Source of the DNA: a virus
Taxonomy: Duplodnaviria > Heunggongvirae > Uroviricota > Caudoviricetes
Reading direction: 5' to 3' (one strand)
Virus record (IMG/VR): IMGVR_UViG_2925939204_000001
DNA: 64,000 nt
Positions within the stretch are counted from its first letter, which is position 1. Every line of letters starts with the position of its first letter. Below, piece after piece: positions 13,380-62,568 of this stretch. The translations under genes and the position numbers were made by a program. The notes beneath the pieces are model-generated. The model did no database searches. It saw nothing but the letters and a program-made list of their open reading frames with translations, and was not told the origin of the DNA.

Positions 13380-15300
13380 GTGCGCCGGGAGACCGGTAGA
13401 GATCAAGGGGTGAAAGTCCCCGACCATTGAAGGACCAGCAATCCACAAGGTCCCCGAGTCATGCGTTGCATACCGCGAGGTATGGGGCGAAGCGTTGACA
13501 GGGGTGTTGACAGGCCAGCCATTGAGCCACGAAATGTATATTAAATTACCGGGTGCCGACGTTGTACTGTTAACGGAAGGCAACATCATAGGGTGCGATA
13601 CTGCGAGTGCCACATGGACCCGGCGGGGTCTGAGACCCTGGCATGTCAATACGATCTCTACGCGGGAACCGGGAGATCTCCCCTCTGACCATCTGCCAGT
13701 GTCGGAGATGGCCCGCACCGGGAAGACGAGGAGTCATAGCCGGTGATGTACGGAGAGGAGAAGTCGGACTCGCTCATAGTAGCGGCGAAGCAGGCGAACA
13801 ACCCGAAAGGAGCGGAGTCAGTGGAGCGAAGGAGCGGGGCCAAGGGGAACGCGGAACAGCCACACATGCGCCGGACACAGAGCCGGGAAAGCATGTCACA
13901 GAGGCTGTCACGCGTGCGGGAAGCTGCGAAGCAGCAGAAGAAAGAACGGTTTACAGCATTGTTCCACCTGCTGACAGTCGAAGCACTGGAAGCCGCATTC
14001 CTCTCCCTGAGCAGGAAAGCGGCCGCGGGAGTGGATGGCATCAGGTGGATGGACTACGCCGGAAACATGAAGAACAACATAACAGATCTGCACCGGAGGC
14101 TACATCAGGGCAGCTACAGGGCGCAGCCCGGCAGGCGTCACTACATCCCAAAAGCGGATGGAAAACAACGCCCGCTCGGCATCGCCTCGCTGGAGGACAA
14201 GATCGTCCAGTATGCGCTGGTGAAAATCCTGAACGCAGTCTATGAAAACGACTTTATGGGGTTCTCATACGGGTTCAGACCCGGGCGAAACCAGCACGAT
14301 GCACTGGACGCACTGGCCACAGGGCTGGTACGCACTAACGTAAACTGGGTACTGGATGCCGACATCAGTCAGTTCTTCGACAGGGTGAGCCACGAATGGC
14401 TGATCAGGTTCACAGAGCATCGGATCGGCGACCGGAGGGTAATCAGGCTCATACGTAAGTGGCTCACAGCCGGGACGTCGGAGGAGGGTCAATGGCGAGC
14501 AACGGAGGAAGGCACCCCACAGGGTGCGGTCATCTCACCGCTGCTGGCAAACATATACCTCCACTACGTCTTCGATCTGTGGGCGCATCAGTGGCGACGT
14601 CGCTATGCCACAGGCAATGTGGTAATGGTCAGATACGCCGATGACATCGTCATCGGGTTCGACAAACGATACGATGCCCGGCGCTTCCGTATAGCCATGC
14701 AGCGCAGACTGAGGGAGTTCGGACTCACGGTTCACCCGGAGAAAACCCGTCTGATGGAGTTCGGCCGCTTCGCTGCCGAAAACCGTGCCATCAGGGGAAA
14801 AGGCAAACCAGAAACGTTCAACTTCCTCGGGTTCACGCACATCAGCGGGAAAGATCGCAACGGCAGGTTCATGCTGATACGAAAGACCCGCCGGGATCGG
14901 ATGACGGCAACTCTGAAAGCCATCAAAGACGGTCTGCGAAGGCGCTGGCATTACTCAATCCCCGAACAGGGAAAATGGCTCAGGAGAGTGGTTCAGGGAT
15001 ACCTGAACTATCACTCGGTACCGGGCAACTTCCCCACCATGCAGAAGTTCAGGACACACGTAACAAACCTCTGGCGCCGGGCGCTCAGGCGCAGGAGCCA
15101 GAAGGATGATACGACCTGGACGAAAGCAAACAAACTGGCAGCCGCATGGCTACCAAGGGTTCGGGTTCTTCATCCATGGCCTGTGGAGCGGTTCACCGCC
15201 AGACACCCGAGGCAGGAGCCCGGTGCGTAAATCGCGCACGCCGGGATCTGTGCGGGGGGTATCCGGTAACGGGTATCCCTACCGCGACATACATTGAAAA
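13380..15300 (+). mobile_element. group II intron (bacterial, ORF in domain IV); 3' boundary approximate
   Basis: 5' end GTGCGCC; internal RT/maturase ORF; 34-nt domain V-like hairpin with GUAA tetraloop and 2-nt bulge at 15252-15285 after the ORF. Confidence 0.7.
13743..15230 (+). CDS. group II intron-encoded reverse transcriptase/maturase
   Basis: RT motifs including GTPQGAVISPLLANIYL and YADD; C-terminal maturase region; no Cys-rich HNH endonuclease domain visible. Confidence 0.9.
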   Translation: MMYGEEKSDSLIVAAKQANNPKGAESVERRSGAKGNAEQPHMRRTQSRESMSQRLSRVREAAKQQKKERFTALFHLLTVEALEAAFLSLSRKAAAGVDGIRWMDYAGNMKNNITDLHRRLHQGSYRAQPGRRHYIPKADGKQRPLGIASLEDKIVQYALVKILNAVYENDFMGFSYGFRPGRNQHDALDALATGLVRTNVNWVLDADISQFFDRVSHEWLIRFTEHRIGDRRVIRLIRKWLTAGTSEEGQWRATEEGTPQGAVISPLLANIYLHYVFDLWAHQWRRRYATGNVVMVRYADDIVIGFDKRYDARRFRIAMQRRLREFGLTVHPEKTRLMEFGRFAAENRAIRGKGKPETFNFLGFTHISGKDRNGRFMLIRKTRRDRMTATLKAIKDGLRRRWHYSIPEQGKWLRRVVQGYLNYHSVPGNFPTMQKFRTHVTNLWRRALRRRSQKDDTTWTKANKLAAAWLPRVRVLHPWPVERFTARHPRQEPGA

Positions 15301-23506: not shown

Positions 23507-24502
23507 TCAGTTATTGAACGTGATCACTCCGCGCTCGATGGCGAAGTCGAAAAGCTGGTTGGCGGCTACGTAAAGGCGTATGCCATGTGCTTTTTCCCAT
23601 GCCCGGACATCGTTTTCTGCGCTTCTGGCGCATTCATCGCAAAGAGGAACGGCCCAGCGATCGTGTTCGTTTAACGAGCGGGCGCGGTACATGAACGGGT
23701 GATTAACTTTGCCTCCGCATCCGATGCACGGACGAGAAATCACAAACCGGAGATAAGCCGGGCTTTTACCGAGAACCGCTTTTGGTCGGCGCATATACAG
23801 CAGGCCGGAATCCTCATCTACAGACAGGTTGACGATCTGCTCTGCGGTTATGTCCACCAGCTCACGGGTGCTGTGCTCCCAGGTGATATCCGATTCTTTC
23901 AGTGTGCCGGTAGGGATTTCCTGTTTTGGCTGACAAAATGCAATGCGACCGGCTTCATCTGGCAGCTCGTCTTTCAGATTCCGGCGAATGGCCCAAAAAG
24001 TGAGTTCAACCATGCTCAGATCGCGTTCTGGCGGTAGTTTTAACTCGCTCGCAGCCCAGTTCATAACCCAGTTGGCACGATTCAGGGATAACTGGTCATC
24101 CAGCTTGCCGTACCCCTTCATCATGTATTCCGCATCATGCTTCCAGCACAGGCGAACGGCAGAGCCGTTATAGAAATGAGTGGTTAGCTGGTGGCTGCAA
24201 TCGCGCTTATCGTGCGCCTGGCAATCGTGGATATTGGAACTTACCCAATGAACAAGCGAATCTTCACCGCCTAATGCGTTAAATACGCGCTCGCTTTGAA
24301 AAAATGCTTTCAGAGACTGGTTGGCAACCAGCGAATAGTTCAGATCCACTACGCCATCTGGCGTGTTTTCAGCCTGTTCGCGCGGAAGTGGAGAGATAAT
24401 GAAACGGCGACCTGCGCCAATGTAGTTGCTGGTGGGCTTGTCTACCGGAAAGACAGCCACACCAGCTCCGTTTACGAAATGAGGTGTGATTATTGCACTC
24501 AT
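23507..24502 (-). CDS. hypothetical protein with C-terminal Cys cluster (331 aa)
   Basis: CIGCGG...CDEC pattern near C-terminus suggests a zinc-binding module. Confidence 0.5.
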   Translation of the reverse strand: MSAIITPHFVNGAGVAVFPVDKPTSNYIGAGRRFIISPLPREQAENTPDGVVDLNYSLVANQSLKAFFQSERVFNALGGEDSLVHWVSSNIHDCQAHDKRDCSHQLTTHFYNGSAVRLCWKHDAEYMMKGYGKLDDQLSLNRANWVMNWAASELKLPPERDLSMVELTFWAIRRNLKDELPDEAGRIAFCQPKQEIPTGTLKESDITWEHSTRELVDITAEQIVNLSVDEDSGLLYMRRPKAVLGKSPAYLRFVISRPCIGCGGKVNHPFMYRARSLNEHDRWAVPLCDECARSAENDVRAWEKAHGIRLYVAANQLFDFAIERGVITFNN

Positions 24503-46109: not shown

Positions 46110-46377
46110 TGTGGATTCCTCAAAGCGTAAACAACGTATAACAGCGTATGATCTTATAAGCCGAATAGGCTGACAACCACTAGTTGATTAGAAATTACTT
46201 TCTATCGTTATTTCAATAATGAGCTTTTTCATGAAGCCCACTTTTGCGCATAAGTAAATTAATGACAAATGGTACACAATTGGAACCAAAAAGGATGTAA
46301 AGGTGCACCAAATTAGTGGTGTATTGGTGCACCTTTGGTTCAAGACTTTTTAAGTTCTAAAACCAACCTGAAAGACT

Positions 46378-46665
46378 TTATTTTGCTTCCTCAGACTCCG
46401 CTAACATGAGGATAGCATGGCGGATCATATTCAATTTGCTGCGATTATGCTTTTTGCTCAACGCATCAAGTACCTGGTACTCGTATTCATTGAAACCAAC
46501 ACGAATAGATTTAAAATCACGTGGAGCGTCCTTATCGAGCACTTTGTTGTCTTCTGGTTGCTCACCCGGCACCAAATCAGCCTTACTTGCAAAATCCTCA
46601 ATTCGGCGTTCAAGATCGGGGTCTTTTACTTCGGGGGCTTTTACCGATTTACGAGGCTTAATCAC
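46378..46665 (-). CDS. ParG-like centromere-binding protein (ribbon-helix-helix)
   Basis: 95 aa; basic flexible N-terminus and C-terminal RHH-like segment; immediately downstream of, and overlapping, the ParF-like ATPase gene. Confidence 0.5.
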   Translation of the reverse strand: MIKPRKSVKAPEVKDPDLERRIEDFASKADLVPGEQPEDNKVLDKDAPRDFKSIRVGFNEYEYQVLDALSKKHNRSKLNMIRHAILMLAESEEAK

Positions 46666-47329
46666 TTAATAACTCCTTAACCAACATCTGGATTTCACCT
46701 TTAGCTTTCCCGTTGTCCATCTCAACAACGCCCTTCCCTTCAGCCATGCAATCGCGGTAAACCTTACGATCACGAATGATGGTTTTCAGCAACTTCAGTT
46801 GCGGATATTCAGCCAGGTACTCTTTGGCCTCATTGGTTTCATTCACAACCGGATTGGATGGGGCCATTGTTAAGACTGCGAACGCCTTAATGCTAGGATT
46901 AGGCATCAGGTCCAAAGCCTCTTCAAACACTTCAACAAAGTGTGCCAGCGTGTCTAAATCTGGTTGAGATGGTCTGAATGGGACCAACACAATATCTGCA
47001 GCGGTTATGCCTGTACGCATCTCTTTGCTATCGCGCCCGGCTGTATCAACAACAACAAATTCATAACGCTTATCCAGATCGAGAAGTGTTTCTCGAATAT
47101 TACCAAACTTCTGGACACAATGAATTACAGGAGAAACCTCTGCCGTGTTACGGTCAGCTGCCCAGCGGGCAGCTGTTCCTTGCTTGTCTGCATCTAGTAA
47201 CACTACATCCTTATTTGCGCGGGCAAGCTCCGCACAGATGTTTACGCTTGTGGTTGATTTTCCACAGCCACCTTTTTGGCTGACTACCAATATAATCATA
47301 TCCGTTCCTCGGTGTGATTTTGGTATCAA
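46658..47329 (-). CDS. ParA/ParF-family partition ATPase (small type Ib)
   Basis: Deviant Walker A VVSQKGGCGKST; probable real start at internal Met (MIILVV...). Confidence 0.8.
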   Translation of the reverse strand: MIPKSHRGTDMIILVVSQKGGCGKSTTSVNICAELARANKDVVLLDADKQGTAARWAADRNTAEVSPVIHCVQKFGNIRETLLDLDKRYEFVVVDTAGRDSKEMRTGITAADIVLVPFRPSQPDLDTLAHFVEVFEEALDLMPNPSIKAFAVLTMAPSNPVVNETNEAKEYLAEYPQLKLLKTIIRDRKVYRDCMAEGKGVVEMDNGKAKGEIQMLVKELLSD

Positions 47330-47580
47330 AACGGTTCCAGATAAGAGCCTTTTTGATGCGGGACAGGCTCTATAATGGAGTCATGAATGTTTGGCAAAGT
47401 ATAACATCAATCAGACCAAATACACCTTATATTGCATCCTATTTAACACGAAATCAGCCCTAAATTGGAACCAGATACAAAATTGCACCATAACAGCACC
47501 TAAATGGTGCCAGTTCAACACTAATTAGACACCATTAAGGCACAAAAAGGGCTGCAATTTGCAGCCTTAAACCAGCACAT
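47330..47580. repeat. iteron-like repeat cluster upstream of the ParF-like gene (putative centromere/operator)
   Basis: Repeated AAATTGGAACCA / AAATTGCACCAT / AAATGGTGCCAG units; related units also at 46241-46320 and 50255-50300. Confidence 0.4.
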
Positions 47581-47586
47581 CTTCTG

Positions 47587-47931
47587 TCAATCAGGTAGAG
47601 AGTCAGCCAGATTGCGCGCCGACGCGCTTTTGGCAACAACTTGCTCCTTCACTGGCTCAATGGAGGCAGGGCGCTCCTCAACCGCAGCTGGTAGTTCCAG
47701 GAAGGATGCCAGCATTTTTCGGATCAGCTCCGGGTTATTGTCTTCGGTCAGCAGGGAAGCCAGTAATCCTGGAAGCCTGCTATCGACTTCTCCCAGCGCA
47801 AGCCCTGCCAACAATGCAGTTCTTGCCATATCGCTATGTTTTTTTATCTTCTCGCTCGCCGCCTTTTCATTGGCATAAGCCTCTGGGCGAAGATAAATCA
47901 TCACTTTCTTACGTTCCTGAGACATGGACAT
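47587..47931 (-). CDS. ParR/StbB-like partition adaptor (114 aa)
   Basis: Small protein directly downstream of the ParM-like gene; assignment by position and size. Confidence 0.45.
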   Translation of the reverse strand: MSMSQERKKVMIYLRPEAYANEKAASEKIKKHSDMARTALLAGLALGEVDSRLPGLLASLLTEDNNPELIRKMLASFLELPAAVEERPASIEPVKEQVVAKSASARNLADSLPD

Positions 47932-47937
47932 ACCTCG

Positions 47938-48918
47938 TTAACCGATTGCTTTCAGGCCATGAACAAGAGCAAGTTGCGGGTCATCCGCCACGAAGAAACG
48001 GTCATCACGAATATTAACTTGCTCGCGAATTGCATCTGCCACCAGCGGTGCGCCACCACCGATCACCATGACATGCGTATATCCTTTAAAGTCGCCAATC
48101 ACATCAAGAACGCGGGTACGCAGACGGTCAATGCTTGCGGCAATGGCCTTTTTCACATCACCAATCGCTGATGGGTCATTGATATTGTCGTTCAGATAAT
48201 CTTCATCGTGGCGGTTAATAATGAGCTGATCAACATTGTAATTTGACGTTTCGGTATTGGCTCTGGCAAGTGCTTGCCTTACTTCCCTGGTAACCAGAGA
48301 GACGCCAAGATTCGAATCGCCAAAAACACGGGAAACTGCCGTCATTTGCCCGGCGACCATTGAAACATCAAGGGTAGTTCCACCCAAATCGACGATAAGA
48401 ATAGAATGGGCAGGGTTCAGATTGTCGCACAGGCCAATTCCTGCCGGAATAGACTCCGGTCGTACCGTAACTTTCTTAATCGTGAACACATTGCCTTTAT
48501 TCAGCGTGACGGGGCGCATAAGGCTGGCTTTCTTGCGCTCGATGTTATCGAGATTGTATTGCGCGTCGTCGTCGTAAAACTCCGCCAGAGGCAGCGTGAC
48601 CACAATTTCTACTTCCTGCGGCTCAATGCCACTTGTCAGCAGGGCATGGTGAACAGCCAGGACGTTAAGCGGGCTGTATTGCCATTCCACGTTATTCGTC
48701 GGCAGAACATCTGGCGAGATCAAATCATACGAATACTTTTCGTCGTCAATGACATAGTTAAACGGCTTGCCAGCACCAAATGTTGCTGACCATCCGCGCT
48801 TAAAGCTGTTAGGGCTGATGTGAGTGCGAGTTTCCCCGTCGTGCTCCCACAGCATTTTGATATTGGTTGAACCATCATCGATAAAAATGCGCATCTTCTT
48901 GCTCCACTTCTGAGACAC
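47938..48918 (-). CDS. parM: ParM/StbA actin-like partition ATPase
   Basis: Actin-fold phosphate motifs IFIDDGSTNIK and LIVDLGGTTLD, GGGAP near C-terminus. Confidence 0.75.
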   Translation of the reverse strand: MSQKWSKKMRIFIDDGSTNIKMLWEHDGETRTHISPNSFKRGWSATFGAGKPFNYVIDDEKYSYDLISPDVLPTNNVEWQYSPLNVLAVHHALLTSGIEPQEVEIVVTLPLAEFYDDDAQYNLDNIERKKASLMRPVTLNKGNVFTIKKVTVRPESIPAGIGLCDNLNPAHSILIVDLGGTTLDVSMVAGQMTAVSRVFGDSNLGVSLVTREVRQALARANTETSNYNVDQLIINRHDEDYLNDNINDPSAIGDVKKAIAASIDRLRTRVLDVIGDFKGYTHVMVIGGGAPLVADAIREQVNIRDDRFFVADDPQLALVHGLKAIG

Positions 48919-49090
48919 ATTTGAGAATCAAAATGTAATTTTAAAAGAGAAGCACCCAAAAATCCACACCAAACGAGATAAAGAAGAGCGATTGTTGAGT
49001 TTATTTTGAGAATATCTTGATCACCCACCGAATGATGGTCTGACAGTGAGATTTATTTGAGAACGAATTGAGAATGCAAAAATATTCCGA
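48919..49090. repeat. parC-like centromere/promoter repeats upstream of parM
   Basis: Five TTGAGAA(T/C) units between 48920 and 49076. Confidence 0.4.
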
Positions 49091-59513: not shown

Positions 59514-60221
59514 GTGAGTATTTTCAGCAGCGTTGGTAGAACGTTGACCACCGCATTGTCATTTAACACGAAATCATTCACCAGCAACCTCATTAGCGAC
59601 ATTCTTGATAAAGCCATATCAGGCGGCGGGGTAAGCGGGAATTACAGTAGCGATATTGCCTACGGGAAAAATATTGTTGCTGCCGCTATGCGTATCCGTT
59701 ACGCCCAGGGGTGGCAGTGGACCGTTGAAGTGGATGGTCTGAACGGCTTCGATATGTTCGTGAAGGATATCACCTACAGCAGTGGGAACATCGAGACAGA
59801 AAGCAAGGTGATCGGCAGCGTAGAATTCAGCAAGCCAACCTATGTTAGCGCCGGACCGGTCACTATGACCGTGAGGGATACCGAAGATGGCAAGATCATG
59901 GACTGGTTCAAAGAGCGTCGTTCTCGTGTAACAAATCCTGATGGAACAATAAACCTTCCTCCGGAATATCTGATGAAAATCCGTGTCTACCGGGTAACTC
60001 AGGACGGCGGAAAAGAACTGGAAGAAGAAATGCGCGTATTTCCTACTCAACTTGGGGAAATCACCCGCTCACGTGATCAGGTGTCAGAGTTCTTGTCATA
60101 CCCAATCACTTTCCAGAAATACACATCCGCAGGCTCAGGTGTTTCTGCTTTGGTCAACGGTGCCGCTGGCATGGCTACAAGTGCGTTAAAGGGGGCTGTG
60201 AGTGGAGTGATCAAATTCTGA
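59514..60221 (+). CDS. putative virion protein (235 aa)
   Basis: ORF in structural cluster. Confidence 0.45.
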   Translation: MSIFSSVGRTLTTALSFNTKSFTSNLISDILDKAISGGGVSGNYSSDIAYGKNIVAAAMRIRYAQGWQWTVEVDGLNGFDMFVKDITYSSGNIETESKVIGSVEFSKPTYVSAGPVTMTVRDTEDGKIMDWFKERRSRVTNPDGTINLPPEYLMKIRVYRVTQDGGKELEEEMRVFPTQLGEITRSRDQVSEFLSYPITFQKYTSAGSGVSALVNGAAGMATSALKGAVSGVIKF

Positions 60222-60299
60222 ATAGCTTTAATTATGTGTGCTGGAGGGTTGCTCATTTCCCGTCAGCACCCACGACCTCAACGATAGCGGGTAGGGAAG

Positions 60300-60606
60300 G
60301 TAGCGCAATGTTGAGGGCATTTTTTACATCATCAATCCATCAGCAATGAAGGCATTCTTTACATATTTCAATAATATCAATCAGTTAACACAGTGAATGA
60401 TAATAAAAAAGCGCAATAAGAATGCACGATACGCACGATATTGGTTGAGGGCGATTTTTACATAATCCTTACATATCAATATGTTATATAAAAACACAAC
60501 TTGCTAATAACGAGATACATGCAATTAAGATGTAAAAATTGCCCTCAATTGCCGATCGTTAAGGGCAAATTCTACACCTTGAGAGGGGTGTAAAAATTGC
60601 CCTTAA
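60300..60606. repeat. incA-like iteron array downstream of repA
   Basis: About six 19-bp units related to TTGAGGGCAAATCTTACACC in both orientations. Confidence 0.55.
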
Positions 60607-61391
60607 GACTGCTGATAGGTAAATTTTATCCTGGTAACTTTGCCGCCTTCCGTCACCTCTGAGAAGACTATTTTCATTTTTGTATTTTTTTCAATCTCTG
60701 CTACAGCCTTCGTTAAAAAACTTCTCTTAAATTCGGCATACCGCTGATAGCTTTTTGGTAACCCATAACGCTCCCGCATCCATTCGACGCCAAGTATGGC
60801 AAAGCCGCTTCCATCATCCTTCCTGTACTGGCATAAGGACTCATAAAGCCGCATAGAATAAGGATTTGTAAGGCGAGATACTTCGGTAAAATTCAGCCTT
60901 GTGAATCTCTTATCAAGCAGAGTAAAAAACGGCATGAGATATGGATTAAGATGAATAATGTAAGTCCCGCGCCGTGGTGAATAGGCATCCTTAATCATCC
61001 AGGGATAAGACTCATAACTGTCTTCTGATTCGGTCGATTCATCAGGGTTATATATCGTAACTTTCTTCTCGCTAAGACCTGAAATGGCCTTACGAATATC
61101 CTTGCTGGCTTCAGCAGAGGGCAAATTATACATCTCTGCATATTCGTTGACCGTCAACTCACAGGCACCTGAACCAAGAACGCCATCCTTAGAAGCATAG
61201 CGAAGTCTTCCCACCACAATAAACAACAGTCGCTTTTGGTCGCGAGTCAGGTGATAAGCAGCCTCCGTGATCTCATTGGCTTGTGCCAGACTACGACTAA
61301 TAGGTGTCGCTGACTCAATCAGGCTGACGGCTTTTGCTGTTAATTCCGCTCTGTTCATAACCCTGTGTGATCCTTCAAATGGTGAGGGCAA
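60603..61391 (-). CDS. repA: iteron-binding plasmid replication initiator RepA
   Basis: ORF bracketed by iteron arrays on both sides as in the P1 R replicon; probable real start at internal Met (MNRAELTA...) since the first iteron overlaps the upstream codons. Confidence 0.7.
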   Translation of the reverse strand: MPSPFEGSHRVMNRAELTAKAVSLIESATPISRSLAQANEITEAAYHLTRDQKRLLFIVVGRLRYASKDGVLGSGACELTVNEYAEMYNLPSAEASKDIRKAISGLSEKKVTIYNPDESTESEDSYESYPWMIKDAYSPRRGTYIIHLNPYLMPFFTLLDKRFTRLNFTEVSRLTNPYSMRLYESLCQYRKDDGSGFAILGVEWMRERYGLPKSYQRYAEFKRSFLTKAVAEIEKNTKMKIVFSEVTEGGKVTRIKFTYQQS

Positions 61392-61500
61392 TTTTTACAC
61401 CACTTTGAGGGCAATTACTACACCTTTTGAGGGCAAATCTTACACCTTCTGAGGGCAAATCTTACACCGATCGTATTTAATTGAGGGCAAATCTTACACC
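61383..61500. repeat. incC-like iterons (5 direct copies of TGAGGGCAA(A/T)TNTTACACC)
   Basis: Five ~19-bp direct repeats at roughly 22-23 bp spacing immediately upstream of repA. Confidence 0.65.
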
Positions 61501-61660
61501 AGCCTCCTCTACAGCCCGCGCCACTACTGGCCCCAGCGACGCCTAAAAAGGATCTAAAAAGGATTAAAAATGGAAAAAGGTTTATAAAAATACTCTGTGG
61601 ATATGTGAGTAGCGTCACTTAAGGTGTAAAAATCACCCTCAATAATCGCTTCTCGACCGG
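61500..61660. other. putative plasmid origin region (oriR-like)
   Basis: AT-rich segment with GATC sites, DnaA-box-like TGTGGATAT and one inverted iteron, adjacent to incC-like iterons. Confidence 0.4.
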
Positions 61661-61746
61661 CAAAGATCTTCATTCAATCCCCATCGCAAATCACACACTC
61701 CCTATCCTCTGGAAAATGAACAGATACCTGCTTTTCGGAGGAATAA

Positions 61747-62568
61747 TTGAACATTCCAAAATTCCCATTGCCTTCCCGTCCTGAGACAGAAATTCAGTTC
61801 CACGCCCCTACCGTGAAGGATGCGCTGAAATATTCTGACCTGAACCCGGCAGAAGATGAGGCAACGACTACAGAGTACCTTAACTCTATGCAGGATGGTG
61901 AAATTAACGACAGTGCTAACTGGACAGTTCAGGACCGCAGAACTGCTCTTTGGTGGATATTTGTTAATTCGCGCCCCGATGCAGTAATGACCTACTCCTA
62001 TGAGTGCAGTCACTGCGGTAATACGCATCATGCAGATATTAACCTGAGCGACCTGGCCCAAACAGTAGAAATACTCACTGTACCTCCTTACGTGAAAACC
62101 AACGTACCAGTAAATGGAGTACCAACTGACTGGATACTTAAACCATTAACCGGGAAAGGCGCGGAACTCCTTGAACGAATGCGAGCGTCACTTCCTGATA
62201 TGAAAACTCCCGAATACAGTGCTGGCGTAGCACGGATGCGAATTGCTGAACTCGCTTTATGCACGGCGCTTGAAGACGATCCGGAGGACTTCACGCAGGC
62301 CGCTAACCGACGCTTTGACATCATTGAAAGCATGGCGCTTGAAACCGAATTTACCCCGCTTGTGGCTCGCATACAGCTTATGCAAAAAGACCTACGCCAC
62401 GGCCTGAAAATGTCTATTGAGAGAGGCTCAAGCCGACTGATCCTGCCTCCGCAACATTGCAAAAACGCTAAGGAGGGTGCAGATGTGACAACCACACTGT
62501 ACGTCCCCTTTCTCAATAGAGAGTTTATCCCATCAATTAGATCTGAATGGATGGCTAACCATTATTAA
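61747..62568 (+). CDS. hypothetical protein (273 aa)
   Basis: Complete ORF next to the origin. Confidence 0.5.
   Translation: MNIPKFPLPSRPETEIQFHAPTVKDALKYSDLNPAEDEATTTEYLNSMQDGEINDSANWTVQDRRTALWWIFVNSRPDAVMTYSYECSHCGNTHHADINLSDLAQTVEILTVPPYVKTNVPVNGVPTDWILKPLTGKGAELLERMRASLPDMKTPEYSAGVARMRIAELALCTALEDDPEDFTQAANRRFDIIESMALETEFTPLVARIQLMQKDLRHGLKMSIERGSSRLILPPQHCKNAKEGADVTTTLYVPFLNREFIPSIRSEWMANHY

Follow-up and report, generated by a model that had tools for sequence, protein, structure and literature searches.

Organization of the replicon cassette

Analysis of a 64,000-nucleotide stretch of viral DNA, hereafter the window, identified a replicon cassette of approximately 1.45 kb lying between two tail genes, tub and pmgB, and antisense to both. 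Between the end of the repA gene of the cassette and the tub stop codon (60221) lie 382 nt. Iterons were mapped with a position-weight matrix (PWM) built from the five upstream copies. The features of the region are listed below.

59514..60221, + strand: tub, tail tube gene (D6 orf43, "similar to P1 gene tub"), left flank
60233..60274: two facing P1-type iterons, TATGTGTGCTGGAGGGTTG (+) followed after 4 nt by TTTCCCGTCAGCACCCACG
60312..60605: downstream iteron array, six copies in both orientations (PWM scan)
60587-60605 (-), 60560-60578 (+), 60529-60547 (-), 60446-60464 (+), 60312-60330 (+): strong downstream copies, PWM 17.6-24.5
60347-60365, + strand: weak downstream copy, PWM 10.4, conserved in divergent relatives
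60375..60387, + strand: IHF-consensus match TATCAATCAGTTA, beside the weak iteron
60474..60486, + strand: IHF-consensus match TATCAATATGTTA, beside iteron 60446-60464
60603..61358, - strand: repA, 251-aa Rep3-family initiator with WH1 and WH2 domains, sister clade of mini-F RepE
61116..61134, + strand: iteron-like site in repA (codons for EMYNLPS), PWM 18.0
61383..61500, + strand: five direct 19-bp upstream iterons, TGAGGGCAAATCTTACACC as read on +, PWM 26.4-29.7
61383-61401, 61406-61424, 61428-61446, 61450-61468, 61482-61500, all +: individual upstream copies
61504..61544: GC-rich spacer (71% GC against 48% for the whole window) between the iterons and the AT-rich stretch
61545..61597: AT-rich stretch (77% AT) with three AAAAAGGAT-type repeats phased at 11 nt and one GATC
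61596..61604, - strand: DnaA box ATATCCACA, 8/9 match to the TTATCCACA consensus
61623-61641, - strand: distal inverted iteron beyond the AT-rich stretch, PWM 21.2
61747..62568, + strand: pmgB homologue (D6 orf41), right flank

The initial annotation had described five direct repeats of about 19 bp upstream from repA and about six, in both orientations, downstream from it. Both arrays were recovered in the PWM scan, the upstream copies scoring 26-30 bits and the downstream ones comprising five strong copies and a weak one. Since the best and second-best matches in the remainder of the 64-kb window score 17.4 and 13.1, the 11-12 strong matches clustered within 1.35 kb are far above chance. The upstream array, which is origin-proximal and the counterpart of F incB or P1 incC, has its copies spaced by 23, 22, 22 and 32 bp and lies 24 bp from the repA start codon. 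The first copy of the downstream array, the counterpart of P1 incA or F incC, overlaps the repA stop codon, and the outermost one lies 90 nt from the tub stop codon. The replicon does adjoin virion genes, being flanked by tub to the left and pmgB to the right. The distal inverted iteron and the site inside repA are two copies beyond those described initially.

The segment past the upstream iterons had been called origin-like on account of its AT-richness, a DnaA box and GATC sequences. The AT-richness and the single DnaA box stood; the GATC content is true only in a trivial sense, as there is one such site in the AT-rich stretch and 7 in 1.56 kb, where about 6 are expected. The AT-rich stretch, a probable DNA-unwinding element, is 95% conserved in relatives, the DnaA box is invariant in 6/6 aligned relatives, and the distal inverted iteron is invariant in the alignment and found at the same place in an E. 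marmotae plasmid.

Conservation sets the iterons apart from the DNA around them. Among relatives with diverged spacers, the upstream copies retain 99% identity. All iteron columns taken together are 94-95% identical, against 57-58% for the spacers, in an 85%-identical lineage that includes the most divergent relatives; for the downstream array alone, the values against the divergent lineage are 89-90% and 49-51%. The same 6+1+5+1 arrangement of iterons, including the six downstream copies, occurs in the E. marmotae plasmid. At the IHF-consensus match 60375..60387, the core columns are invariant in the alignment and the surrounding spacer is diverged. The EMYNLPS site is the best-conserved 7-codon window of repA in comparisons with Pantoea and Erwinia plasmids (21/21 and 20/21 nt, against 62% gene-wide); no such site is found inside the F repE gene. 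Plasmid pSa1423-90k, whose many small indels probably reflect a low-quality assembly, was left out of the comparison. An Rfam scan of positions 59800-62000 (E ≤ 1) returned no match; the segment therefore contains no described family of antisense control RNAs.

Affiliation of RepA and nature of the element

RepA matches the Pfam Rep3_N (2.9e-29) and Rep3_C (9e-16) profiles. In blastp comparisons it is 50% identical to F RepE over 228 aa (2e-86), and it matches the RepE crystal structures at about 1e-73 (PDB 1REP, 1.4e-73). Its score against the NCBIfam RepE model NF010305, 280.6 bits, falls below the equivalog cut-off of 342 bits. Together, these comparisons indicate that RepA belongs to a sister clade of RepE and is not the same protein. 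The components of a Rep3-family iteron theta replicon (PF01051 and PF21205) are all present: an initiator with both WH1 and WH2 domains, direct repeats, an AT-rich stretch and a DnaA box. The repA sequence differs from that of the E. marmotae relative at 63 nt and 3 aa (56 synonymous and 3 non-synonymous codon changes), a pattern indicative of strong purifying selection.

In DNA sequence, the region matches phage D6 at 98.7% identity and plasmid CP020051 at 100%; the sequence search brought up about 110 similar plasmids. The protein is 100% identical to D6 RepA, whose gene, orf42, is annotated as "replication initiation protein, pfam01051". Very likely, then, the region serves a D6-like phage-plasmid of E. 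coli as its replicon in the plasmid-prophage (lysogenic) state, and within the Rep3 family it falls in the RepE (IncFIA-like) branch as a theta replicon regulated by iterons. Because the D6 and plasmid matches carry existing annotation or publication, the replicon counts as known: its rep gene, iterons and par genes had all been annotated or published before. MOB-suite types these plasmids as rep_cluster_1704 from this rep alone, and the replicon is common among phage-plasmids of E. coli, Salmonella and Shigella. The searchable literature yielded no experimental work on it. A 36-kb record with this rep was considered as a natural mini-plasmid and rejected, the record being a linear, incomplete contig.

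The tub-pmgB slot and the partition cassettes

Comparison with sister plasmids showed that the interval between tub and pmgB is occupied by any of three alternative replicon cassettes (RepE-like, P1-RepA-type and p0111-like), with homology among the three restarting at about 61690 on the right. In plasmid pB2C_96, a true P1-type replicon lies in exactly this slot, also without parAB; its Rep is 84% identical to P1 RepA and its origin contains five GATC heptamers, as in P1. The two facing iterons at 60233..60274 are leftovers of an earlier cassette of this kind and mark the left junction of the replacement. Under a P1-iteron PWM they score 24.2 and 17.5 (true P1 iterons, 18.7-31.3), TTTCCCGTCAGCACCCACG, read on the opposite strand, is a P1 incC-type copy, and the offset of the first iteron from the tub stop codon is that of the first incA iteron in the P1-type cassette of pB2C_96. 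These relics are no better conserved than the spacer beside them (in pPSS-10_3 about 90%, as counted from the alignment, against 87%), and they are absent from the divergent lineage, which favors a neutral scar over a selected function. Conversely, pNCYU-26-73-5 retains four RepE-type iterons. At the level of typing, P1-like elements have been reported to switch between replicon types (PMC11165635, PMC9603915); the anatomy of the slot and the relic iterons may be new, no description having been found in the searchable literature.

Identification of the Rep of the window with the PlasmidFinder type "p0111" was considered and dropped, as the p0111 type sits at the P1 locus. Plasmids of the P1 subgroup carry there, beside parAB, a 294-aa Rep 40% identical to P1 RepA along with a GIY-YIG gene, in agreement with the published description of p0111 in JL22 (p0111 being identified here by description). 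The rep_cluster_1704 replicon therefore appears distinct from the p0111 type.

The initial annotation had correctly given the P1 order as oriR-repA-incA-parA-parB-parS, noted the lack of a P1-type parAB next to the present array and provisionally assigned partition to ParF/G and ParM/R cassettes some 12 kb away. This part of the description held. Searches with P1 ParA/ParB and F SopA/SopB (tblastn, E ≤ 1) found no type Ia partition gene adjacent to the replicon or anywhere else in the window, and none in the complete sequences of two relatives (D6 and CP020051). The only partition genes found are the two cassettes, 11-14 kb from the replicon:

46378..46665, - strand: candidate ParG-like centromere-binding protein, 95 aa, overlapping the parF-like gene by 8 nt
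46658..47299, - strand: ParF-like small Walker-type (type Ib) ParA; best PDB match ParF of TP228 (4dzz, 1e-18, full length)
47587..47925, - strand: ParR/StbB-like adaptor protein (Pfam Plasmid_stab_B 3.2e-11; PHROG "partition protein" 8.6e-60)
47938..48894, - strand: ParM-like actin-type segregation ATPase (Pfam StbA_N 1.7e-69; ParM C-terminal domain 3.5e-55)
48911..49080: TGAGAA(n) motif repeats, some 11 bp apart, upstream of parM

The repeats upstream of parM are a candidate parC-like centromere; with the actin-like ParM and the small adaptor, they complete the features of a type II (ParMRC) partition system. The ParF-like ATPase scores 162.6 bits against the NCBIfam ParA_partition model (cut-off, 180). 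Its 95-aa partner has no Pfam or NCBIfam match and shows a weak Arc-like ribbon-helix-helix match over residues 53-94 (1.8e-4). Plasmid pB2C_96 has the same par cassettes, with identical protein accessions, despite its different rep cassette. Thus, partition is unlinked to the replicon and the par cassettes belong to the backbone. We infer that partition is supplied by these backbone ParM/ParR-like and ParF/ParG-like cassettes, either of which might be the active one.

A quite unlikely alternative would have stability arise mainly from the phd-doc and higBA systems and Cre-like multimer resolution, or have only one of the par cassettes active. The annotations of D6 and CP020051 do include two toxin-antitoxin systems and a Cre-like recombinase, the ParG-like partner matches no family beyond the weak ribbon-helix-helix resemblance, the centromere sites are only guessed, and two partition systems are unusual in one low-copy plasmid. 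Against this, both cassettes are intact, their proteins are identical across plasmids with different rep cassettes, and the ParM and ParF-like domains are matched from end to end. Moreover, a plasmid of about 90 kb and presumably low copy number normally depends on active partition.

Two further readings concern the replicon itself, and we give hardly any credence to either. In one, the cassette would be a member of the P1 (IncY) RepA family that lost its parABS neighbor, in line with the "P1-type" label of the initial annotation. This would account for the resemblance to P1 in the succession of origin, five iterons, rep and a second array in two orientations, for the lack of room for a promoter outside the iterons and for the P1-related host element; the two P1-type iterons at 60233-60274 and the distant membership of P1 RepA in the Rep3 family (25.7 bits) point the same way. 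However, blastp detected no similarity between RepA and P1 RepA (E = 0.2, 19.6 bits), compared with 50% identity to F RepE. The functional iterons differ in consensus: no P1-consensus iterons (GATGTGTGCTGGAGGGAAA) flank repA, the arrays there being made of TGAGGGCAAATCTTACACC. The five GATC heptamers are missing. The P1-type iterons lie outside the cassette, are conserved no better than the spacer next to them and are lacking in the divergent lineage, and the same slot can be occupied by a true P1-type cassette instead. On these sequence comparisons, the P1 assignment is refuted at the family level. The point about the missing partition neighbor survives this correction, since the layout is equally that of mini-F, in which sopABC follows incC. 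In the other reading, which seems no less improbable, the cassette would be a decaying relic and the element would be maintained by another replicon, repL or an unrecognized origin. Relic iterons do persist in the slot, and experiments on the cassette are missing from the searchable literature. This reading is countered by the purifying selection on RepA, by the conservation of the iterons relative to their spacers and by the identical iteron architecture in a divergent lineage. Apart from the lytic RepL, the D6 annotation contains no other plasmid-type initiator, and typing of these plasmids relies on this rep alone.

Proposed mode of control and comparison with known replicons

In the model that we favor, RepA monomers would bind the five direct iterons (61383-61500). 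RepA and host DnaA at the adjacent box, probably with the participation of the distal inverted iteron, would then open the 53-bp AT-rich stretch, enabling host helicase loading. The six downstream iterons and the two IHF-type bends would keep copy number low, both by titrating RepA and by pairing with the origin iterons ("handcuffing"), like F incC and P1 incA. No F-type inverted-repeat operator is found between the iterons and repA; together with the 24-bp gap, this suggests that the repA promoter lies within the array, with iteron occupancy repressing repA in a P1-like logic. As a sigma-70 consensus scan detected no repA promoter in or near the iterons, it is the geometry that argues for autoregulation. 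The conserved iteron in repA and the distal inverted iteron may provide extra control steps not known from F or P1. Late transcription from tub to pmgB, running antisense through repA, may also shut down plasmid replication during lytic growth; a PWM built from six annotated P1 late promoters gave nothing convincing in the window, even upstream of pmgC, so that pmgB may either have a late promoter of its own or rely on read-through across the replicon.

The main value of this follow-up is corrective, in that it relates the rep_cluster_1704 replicon to RepE and not to P1 RepA, a distinction relevant to replicon typing and to predictions of phage-plasmid coexistence within a cell. It also illustrates a modular organization of this phage-plasmid group, in which replication cassettes are exchanged at one fixed slot, with iteron scars left at each exchange as a trace of its history, and the backbone keeps its partition genes. 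One may speculate, although we consider it unlikely, that the slot is a dedicated replicon-exchange site and that the iterons left from earlier cassettes are not inert. If so, the P1-type iterons of the window would bind the RepA of a co-resident IncY-type P1 or D6 relative, and the RepE-type iterons of pNCYU-26-73-5 would bind RepA of the type found here, resulting in directional incompatibility or exclusion between competing phage-plasmids.

The closest known systems are the D6 orf42 region and D6-like plasmids such as pYU39_89, in which iterons beside the rep gene were noted earlier (PMC6799933). Element type, flanks and par cassettes are common to these and the window; relative to D6 and CP020051, the window differs outside the replicon only, by mosaic segments and a group II intron. 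Large, non-phage plasmids of Pantoea sp. (pAPP145_3) and Erwinia aeris encode Rep proteins 60-63% identical to RepA. Their iterons belong to the same family (TGAGGGCAAtttCTACA), with five copies upstream, and the site within the gene is present as well. Downstream, the arrays extend to 8 and about 24 copies, longer than in the window, and keep to a single orientation. No SopAB/ParAB homologue lies within 6 kb of their rep genes.

With mini-F ori2/RepE (IncFIA), the cassette shares an initiator homologous over its full length, with both winged-helix domains, and the order DnaA box, AT-rich stretch with a single GATC, spacer, direct 19-bp iterons, rep and second array. The iteron half-site TTGCCCTCA is common to the window and F ori2, whereas the other half differs through divergence and a 1-nt shift; the window PWM finds no match of at least 13 bits in F ori2 or incC, whose iterons read TGTGACAAATTGCCCTCAG. 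A separate incompatibility specificity would be expected from this divergence. Since RepA also scores below the RepE cut-off, the behavior of F is not simply transferable. There are five origin iterons and one DnaA box here, compared with four and two in mini-F. Unlike mini-F, the window has downstream iterons in both orientations, an extra distal inverted iteron and a site inside the gene, and its downstream array is not followed by sopABC.

The P1 oriR-repA-incA replicon (IncY) is similar in overall layout, in low-copy control logic and in its mixed-orientation second array, and neither replicon leaves room for a promoter outside the iteron array. It differs in its origin, where five GATC heptamers adjoin the DnaA boxes, compared with a single DnaA box and, in the AT-rich stretch, a single GATC here, in having parABS attached and in its position, between gene 23 and upfA as opposed to tub and pmgB. 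The present cassette, too, is hosted by a myovirus phage-plasmid, one related to P1.

Identity and layout of the replicon region

Over positions 60200-61750, the window matches E. coli plasmid NZ_CP020051.1 (91,291 bp; a complete D6-like plasmid, hereafter CP020051) at 100% identity and Escherichia phage D6 (NC_050154), a P1-related myovirus, at 98.7%. Among PLSDB plasmids, about 110 from E. coli, Salmonella and Shigella carry the replicon region, mostly 80-96 kb in size and non-mobilizable. The 43569-64000 segment is collinear with CP020051 at 99.9% identity, the rest of the window being mosaic with respect to this plasmid. On the strength of these matches, the window is a D6-like phage-plasmid. 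The D6 counterpart of repA, orf42, is flanked by tub (orf43) and a pmgB homologue (orf41), its record reading 'replication initiation protein; similar to P1 gene repA?; pfam01051'. A group II intron at 13413-15230 (Rfam RF02005, 186.6 bits, with a 495-aa reverse-transcriptase ORF) is part of a segment that CP020051 lacks. The intron probably explains why more than 5000 plasmid records, the majority of them Klebsiella, match window 1-25000. RepA is 100% identical to a protein encoded by an 11-kb metagenomic contig labelled 'uncultured Roseburia sp.' (CALWLV010000256.1); the label is probably a binning error and the contig a D6-like element from Enterobacteriaceae.

The replicon was mapped with a weight matrix trained on the five repeats upstream of repA, which score 26-30 bits. 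Downstream of the gene, the matrix identified five more strong iterons, in both orientations (17.6-24.5 bits), along with the weaker or outlying sites listed below.

Features of the replicon (window coordinates)
61358..60603, minus strand: repA, ORF of 251 aa
60347-60365: sixth downstream iteron, weak (10.4 bits) yet conserved
61116-61134: iteron-like site within repA, 18.0 bits
61623-61641: distal inverted iteron, beyond the AT-rich stretch and DnaA box, 21.2 bits
60375-60387 and 60474-60486: IHF-consensus matches, each after one downstream iteron and inside a 41-nt direct repeat

Across the remaining ~62 kb of the window, the top score was 17.4 and the next 13.1. The top match (TGAGTGCAATAATCACACC, 24483-24501, 17.4 bits), which may be due to chance, coincides with the 5' end of a DUF968 ORF (23507-24502). 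On the origin side, reading in the direction of repA, the inverted iteron is followed by a DnaA box (ATATCCACA, 8/9 consensus positions), a 53-bp AT-rich stretch (77% AT, with one GATC and three phased AAAAAGGAT repeats), a 41-bp GC-rich stretch (71% GC) and the five iterons, the last of which ends 24 bp short of the repA ATG. The distal inverted iteron is invariant in all aligned relatives and is without counterpart in F ori2 and P1 oriR. An Rfam search of the replicon region matched no family. Thus, the map bears out the initial annotation in its description of iterons on both sides of repA and of an AT-rich, DnaA box-containing origin segment. The exception is the weight put on GATC: one copy does lie in the AT-rich stretch, but seven in 1.56 kb, against about six expected, do not amount to enrichment.

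Family and functional state of the replicon

The assignment of this replicon to the P1-type family was not upheld. RepA has Rep3_N and Rep3_C domains, matches the mini-F RepE crystal structures (E 1e-73 to 4e-74) and aligns with F RepE at 50% identity across 228 residues (E 2e-86); with the NCBIfam RepE model it reaches 280.6 bits, short of the 342-bit equivalog cut-off. A blastp comparison with P1 RepA, itself a marginal Rep3 member (25.7 bits), revealed no significant similarity (E = 0.2). The window iteron, GGTGTAAGATTTGCCCTCA in the direction of repA, and the F ori2 iteron, TGTGACAAATTGCCCTCAG, have one half in common (TTGCCCTCA); the other half has diverged, with a one-base shift, and the window matrix finds no match in the F iterons. 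PLSDB relatives of RepA comprise 107 records of at least 95% identity and one at 60-80%, followed by F-type RepE at ~50%. Together, the similarity to RepE, the mismatch with P1 RepA, the iteron half-site and the PLSDB clustering place the replicon, by sequence, in a sister clade of IncFIA RepE. Among species-representative genomes, a Pantoea megaplasmid and an Erwinia aeris contig encode a Rep of 60-63% identity; both replicons resemble that of the window in iteron family and in having five upstream copies, whereas their downstream arrays (8 and about 24 copies) run in a single orientation. 'P1-type' fits the layout only, which mini-F shares. One P1-like trait is a space too short for the inverted-repeat operator of F, which would place the repA promoter within the iteron array; a promoter consensus scan did not find it.

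Several lines of evidence indicate that the cassette is a working replicon as opposed to a relic. The window, D6 and four more distant relatives were aligned. The iteron columns of the two most divergent members, pMUB-MIN14-1 and an E. marmotae plasmid, agree with the window at 94-95% identity, as compared to 57-58% for non-iteron, non-coding columns; within the downstream array, the values are 89-90% for iterons and 49-51% for other columns. Sites in the E. marmotae plasmid have the same number and order as in the window (six downstream, one in the gene, five upstream, one distal inverted). The 63 nt differences between the two repA genes (56 synonymous and 3 non-synonymous codon changes) alter 3 residues, and the cores of both IHF-consensus matches are invariant amid otherwise diverged spacer. 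No other seven-codon window of repA is as well conserved relative to the Pantoea and Erwinia homologues as the intragenic site, which spans codons EMYNLPS (21/21 and 20/21 nt, synonymous positions included, against 62% gene-wide); F repE has no equivalent site. RepA may bind this sequence. The match is suggestive of selection on the DNA itself, but no more than that, since the peptide is conserved too.

Partition genes

P1 has, in succession, oriR, repA, incA, Ppar, parA, parB, parS and then gene 23, in agreement with the initial annotation; in F, sopA and sopB come after incC. Searching with P1 ParA/ParB and F SopA/SopB (tblastn, E <= 1) found nothing in the window, in complete D6 or in complete CP020051, and the D6 annotation lists neither P1-type parAB nor F-type sopAB genes. 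The lack of an adjacent P1-type parAB is thus confirmed, and with the complete close relatives also devoid of it, a parAB on the other side, outside the window, is removed as an objection, for those relatives at least. No SopAB or ParAB homologue was found within 6 kb of the Pantoea and Erwinia aeris rep genes. The two partition cassettes, noted initially at ~12 kb from the replicon, lie 11.4-14 kb away.

Partition genes (window coordinates)
47938-48894: ParM of the ParM/ParR-like cassette
47587-47925: Plasmid_stab_B adaptor of the same cassette
46658-47299: ParF-like ParA, 213 aa (closest solved relative ParF of TP228, 1e-18)
After the ParF-like gene, overlapping it: ParG-like 95-aa gene, weak Arc-like ribbon-helix-helix match

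TGAGAA repeats precede the ParM/ParR-like cassette. For the ParG-like protein, candidate binding sites are an inverted repeat directly downstream of its gene (46299-46336; 13 nt, perfect, with GGTGCACC cores) and GGTGC-type repeats upstream of the ParF-like gene (47480-47515). In pB2C_96, a sister plasmid with another replication cassette, the ParM/ParR and ParF/ParG-like genes have protein accessions identical to those of RepE-cassette plasmids. Judging from this identity, partition is a property of the backbone and is not coupled to exchange of the replication cassette. The initial observation is confirmed and its interpretation partly right.

The tub-pmgB slot and its alternative cassettes

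The replicon does adjoin virion genes, lying between tub and pmgB. In P1, these genes are neighbours, 14 bp apart, in the block after late promoter LPsit; in D6-like plasmids, a ~1.45 kb cassette separates them, antisense to both, and some of these plasmids carry different cassettes in this slot. A P1-type cassette (rep_cluster_2221) occupies it in pB2C_96 and pRHB39-C17_3. It encodes a 286-aa RepA, 84% identical to P1 RepA. Its iterons, five in incC and seven in incA, follow the P1 consensus, and the cassette also has a DnaA box and five GGATCTA repeats; neither plasmid has an adjoining parAB. PLSDB holds about 17 records with this cassette versus about 100 with the RepE-like one. A third cassette (rep_cluster_2164), in pNCYU-26-73-5 (CP042620.1, 1000-2400), has its own iterons and a 294-aa Rep, 41% identical to P1 RepA. 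This rep shares 77% DNA identity with the rep of about 400 plasmids, probably the published 'p0111' type, which in P1-subgroup elements occupies the P1 locus next to parA and parB. In one P1-subgroup plasmid with a p0111-like rep (NZ_CP058773.1, 7141-8333), the P1-type parA match is split into two overlapping segments in different frames, reflecting either a frameshift or a sequencing error. In NZ_CP061103.1 (5310-6957), an IS200/IS605 element (tnpA and tnpB) separates tub from the downstream iteron array; the slot therefore gathers insertions too.

The interval from the tub stop codon to the first RepE-type iteron contains two P1-type iterons, facing each other 4 nt apart.

60233-60251: score 24.2 with the P1 iteron matrix; exact 16-nt match to one P1 incA iteron
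60256-60274: score 17.5 (true P1 iterons, 18.7-31.3)

The offset of the former from tub equals that of the first incA iteron of pB2C_96, and homology among cassette types ends near 60248, to restart near 61690. The pair looks like the scar of an earlier P1-type cassette. In pNCYU-26-73-5 (660-980), a clear P1-type relic, with a second copy in degraded form, precedes four RepE-type iterons and then the plasmid's own array; scanning pB2C_96 revealed no RepE-type relics. The layering reads as a record of successive replacement, in which a P1-type cassette would have given way to a RepE-like and then to a p0111-like one. The direction is not proven, because the divergent RepE-like lineage (pMUB-MIN14-1 and the E. 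marmotae plasmid) lacks the P1 relic. In the cassette alignment, the relics are no better conserved than neighbouring spacer, which favours neutral scars.

Public sources (D6 record, PGAP annotations, pYU39_89 paper) already document the replicon with its rep family and iterons, and the partition genes apart from it; for D6-like pYU39_89, 'repB associated with iteron sequences' was described together with cop, parA, stbB and parM genes (PMC6799933). No account of the slot's anatomy or of its relic iterons was found in the searchable literature, outside which the D6 genome paper falls. As a side finding, the record of cassette swaps is modest; replicon-type switching among P1-like phage-plasmids has been reported (PMC9603915), with 17 switches inferred (PMC11165635).
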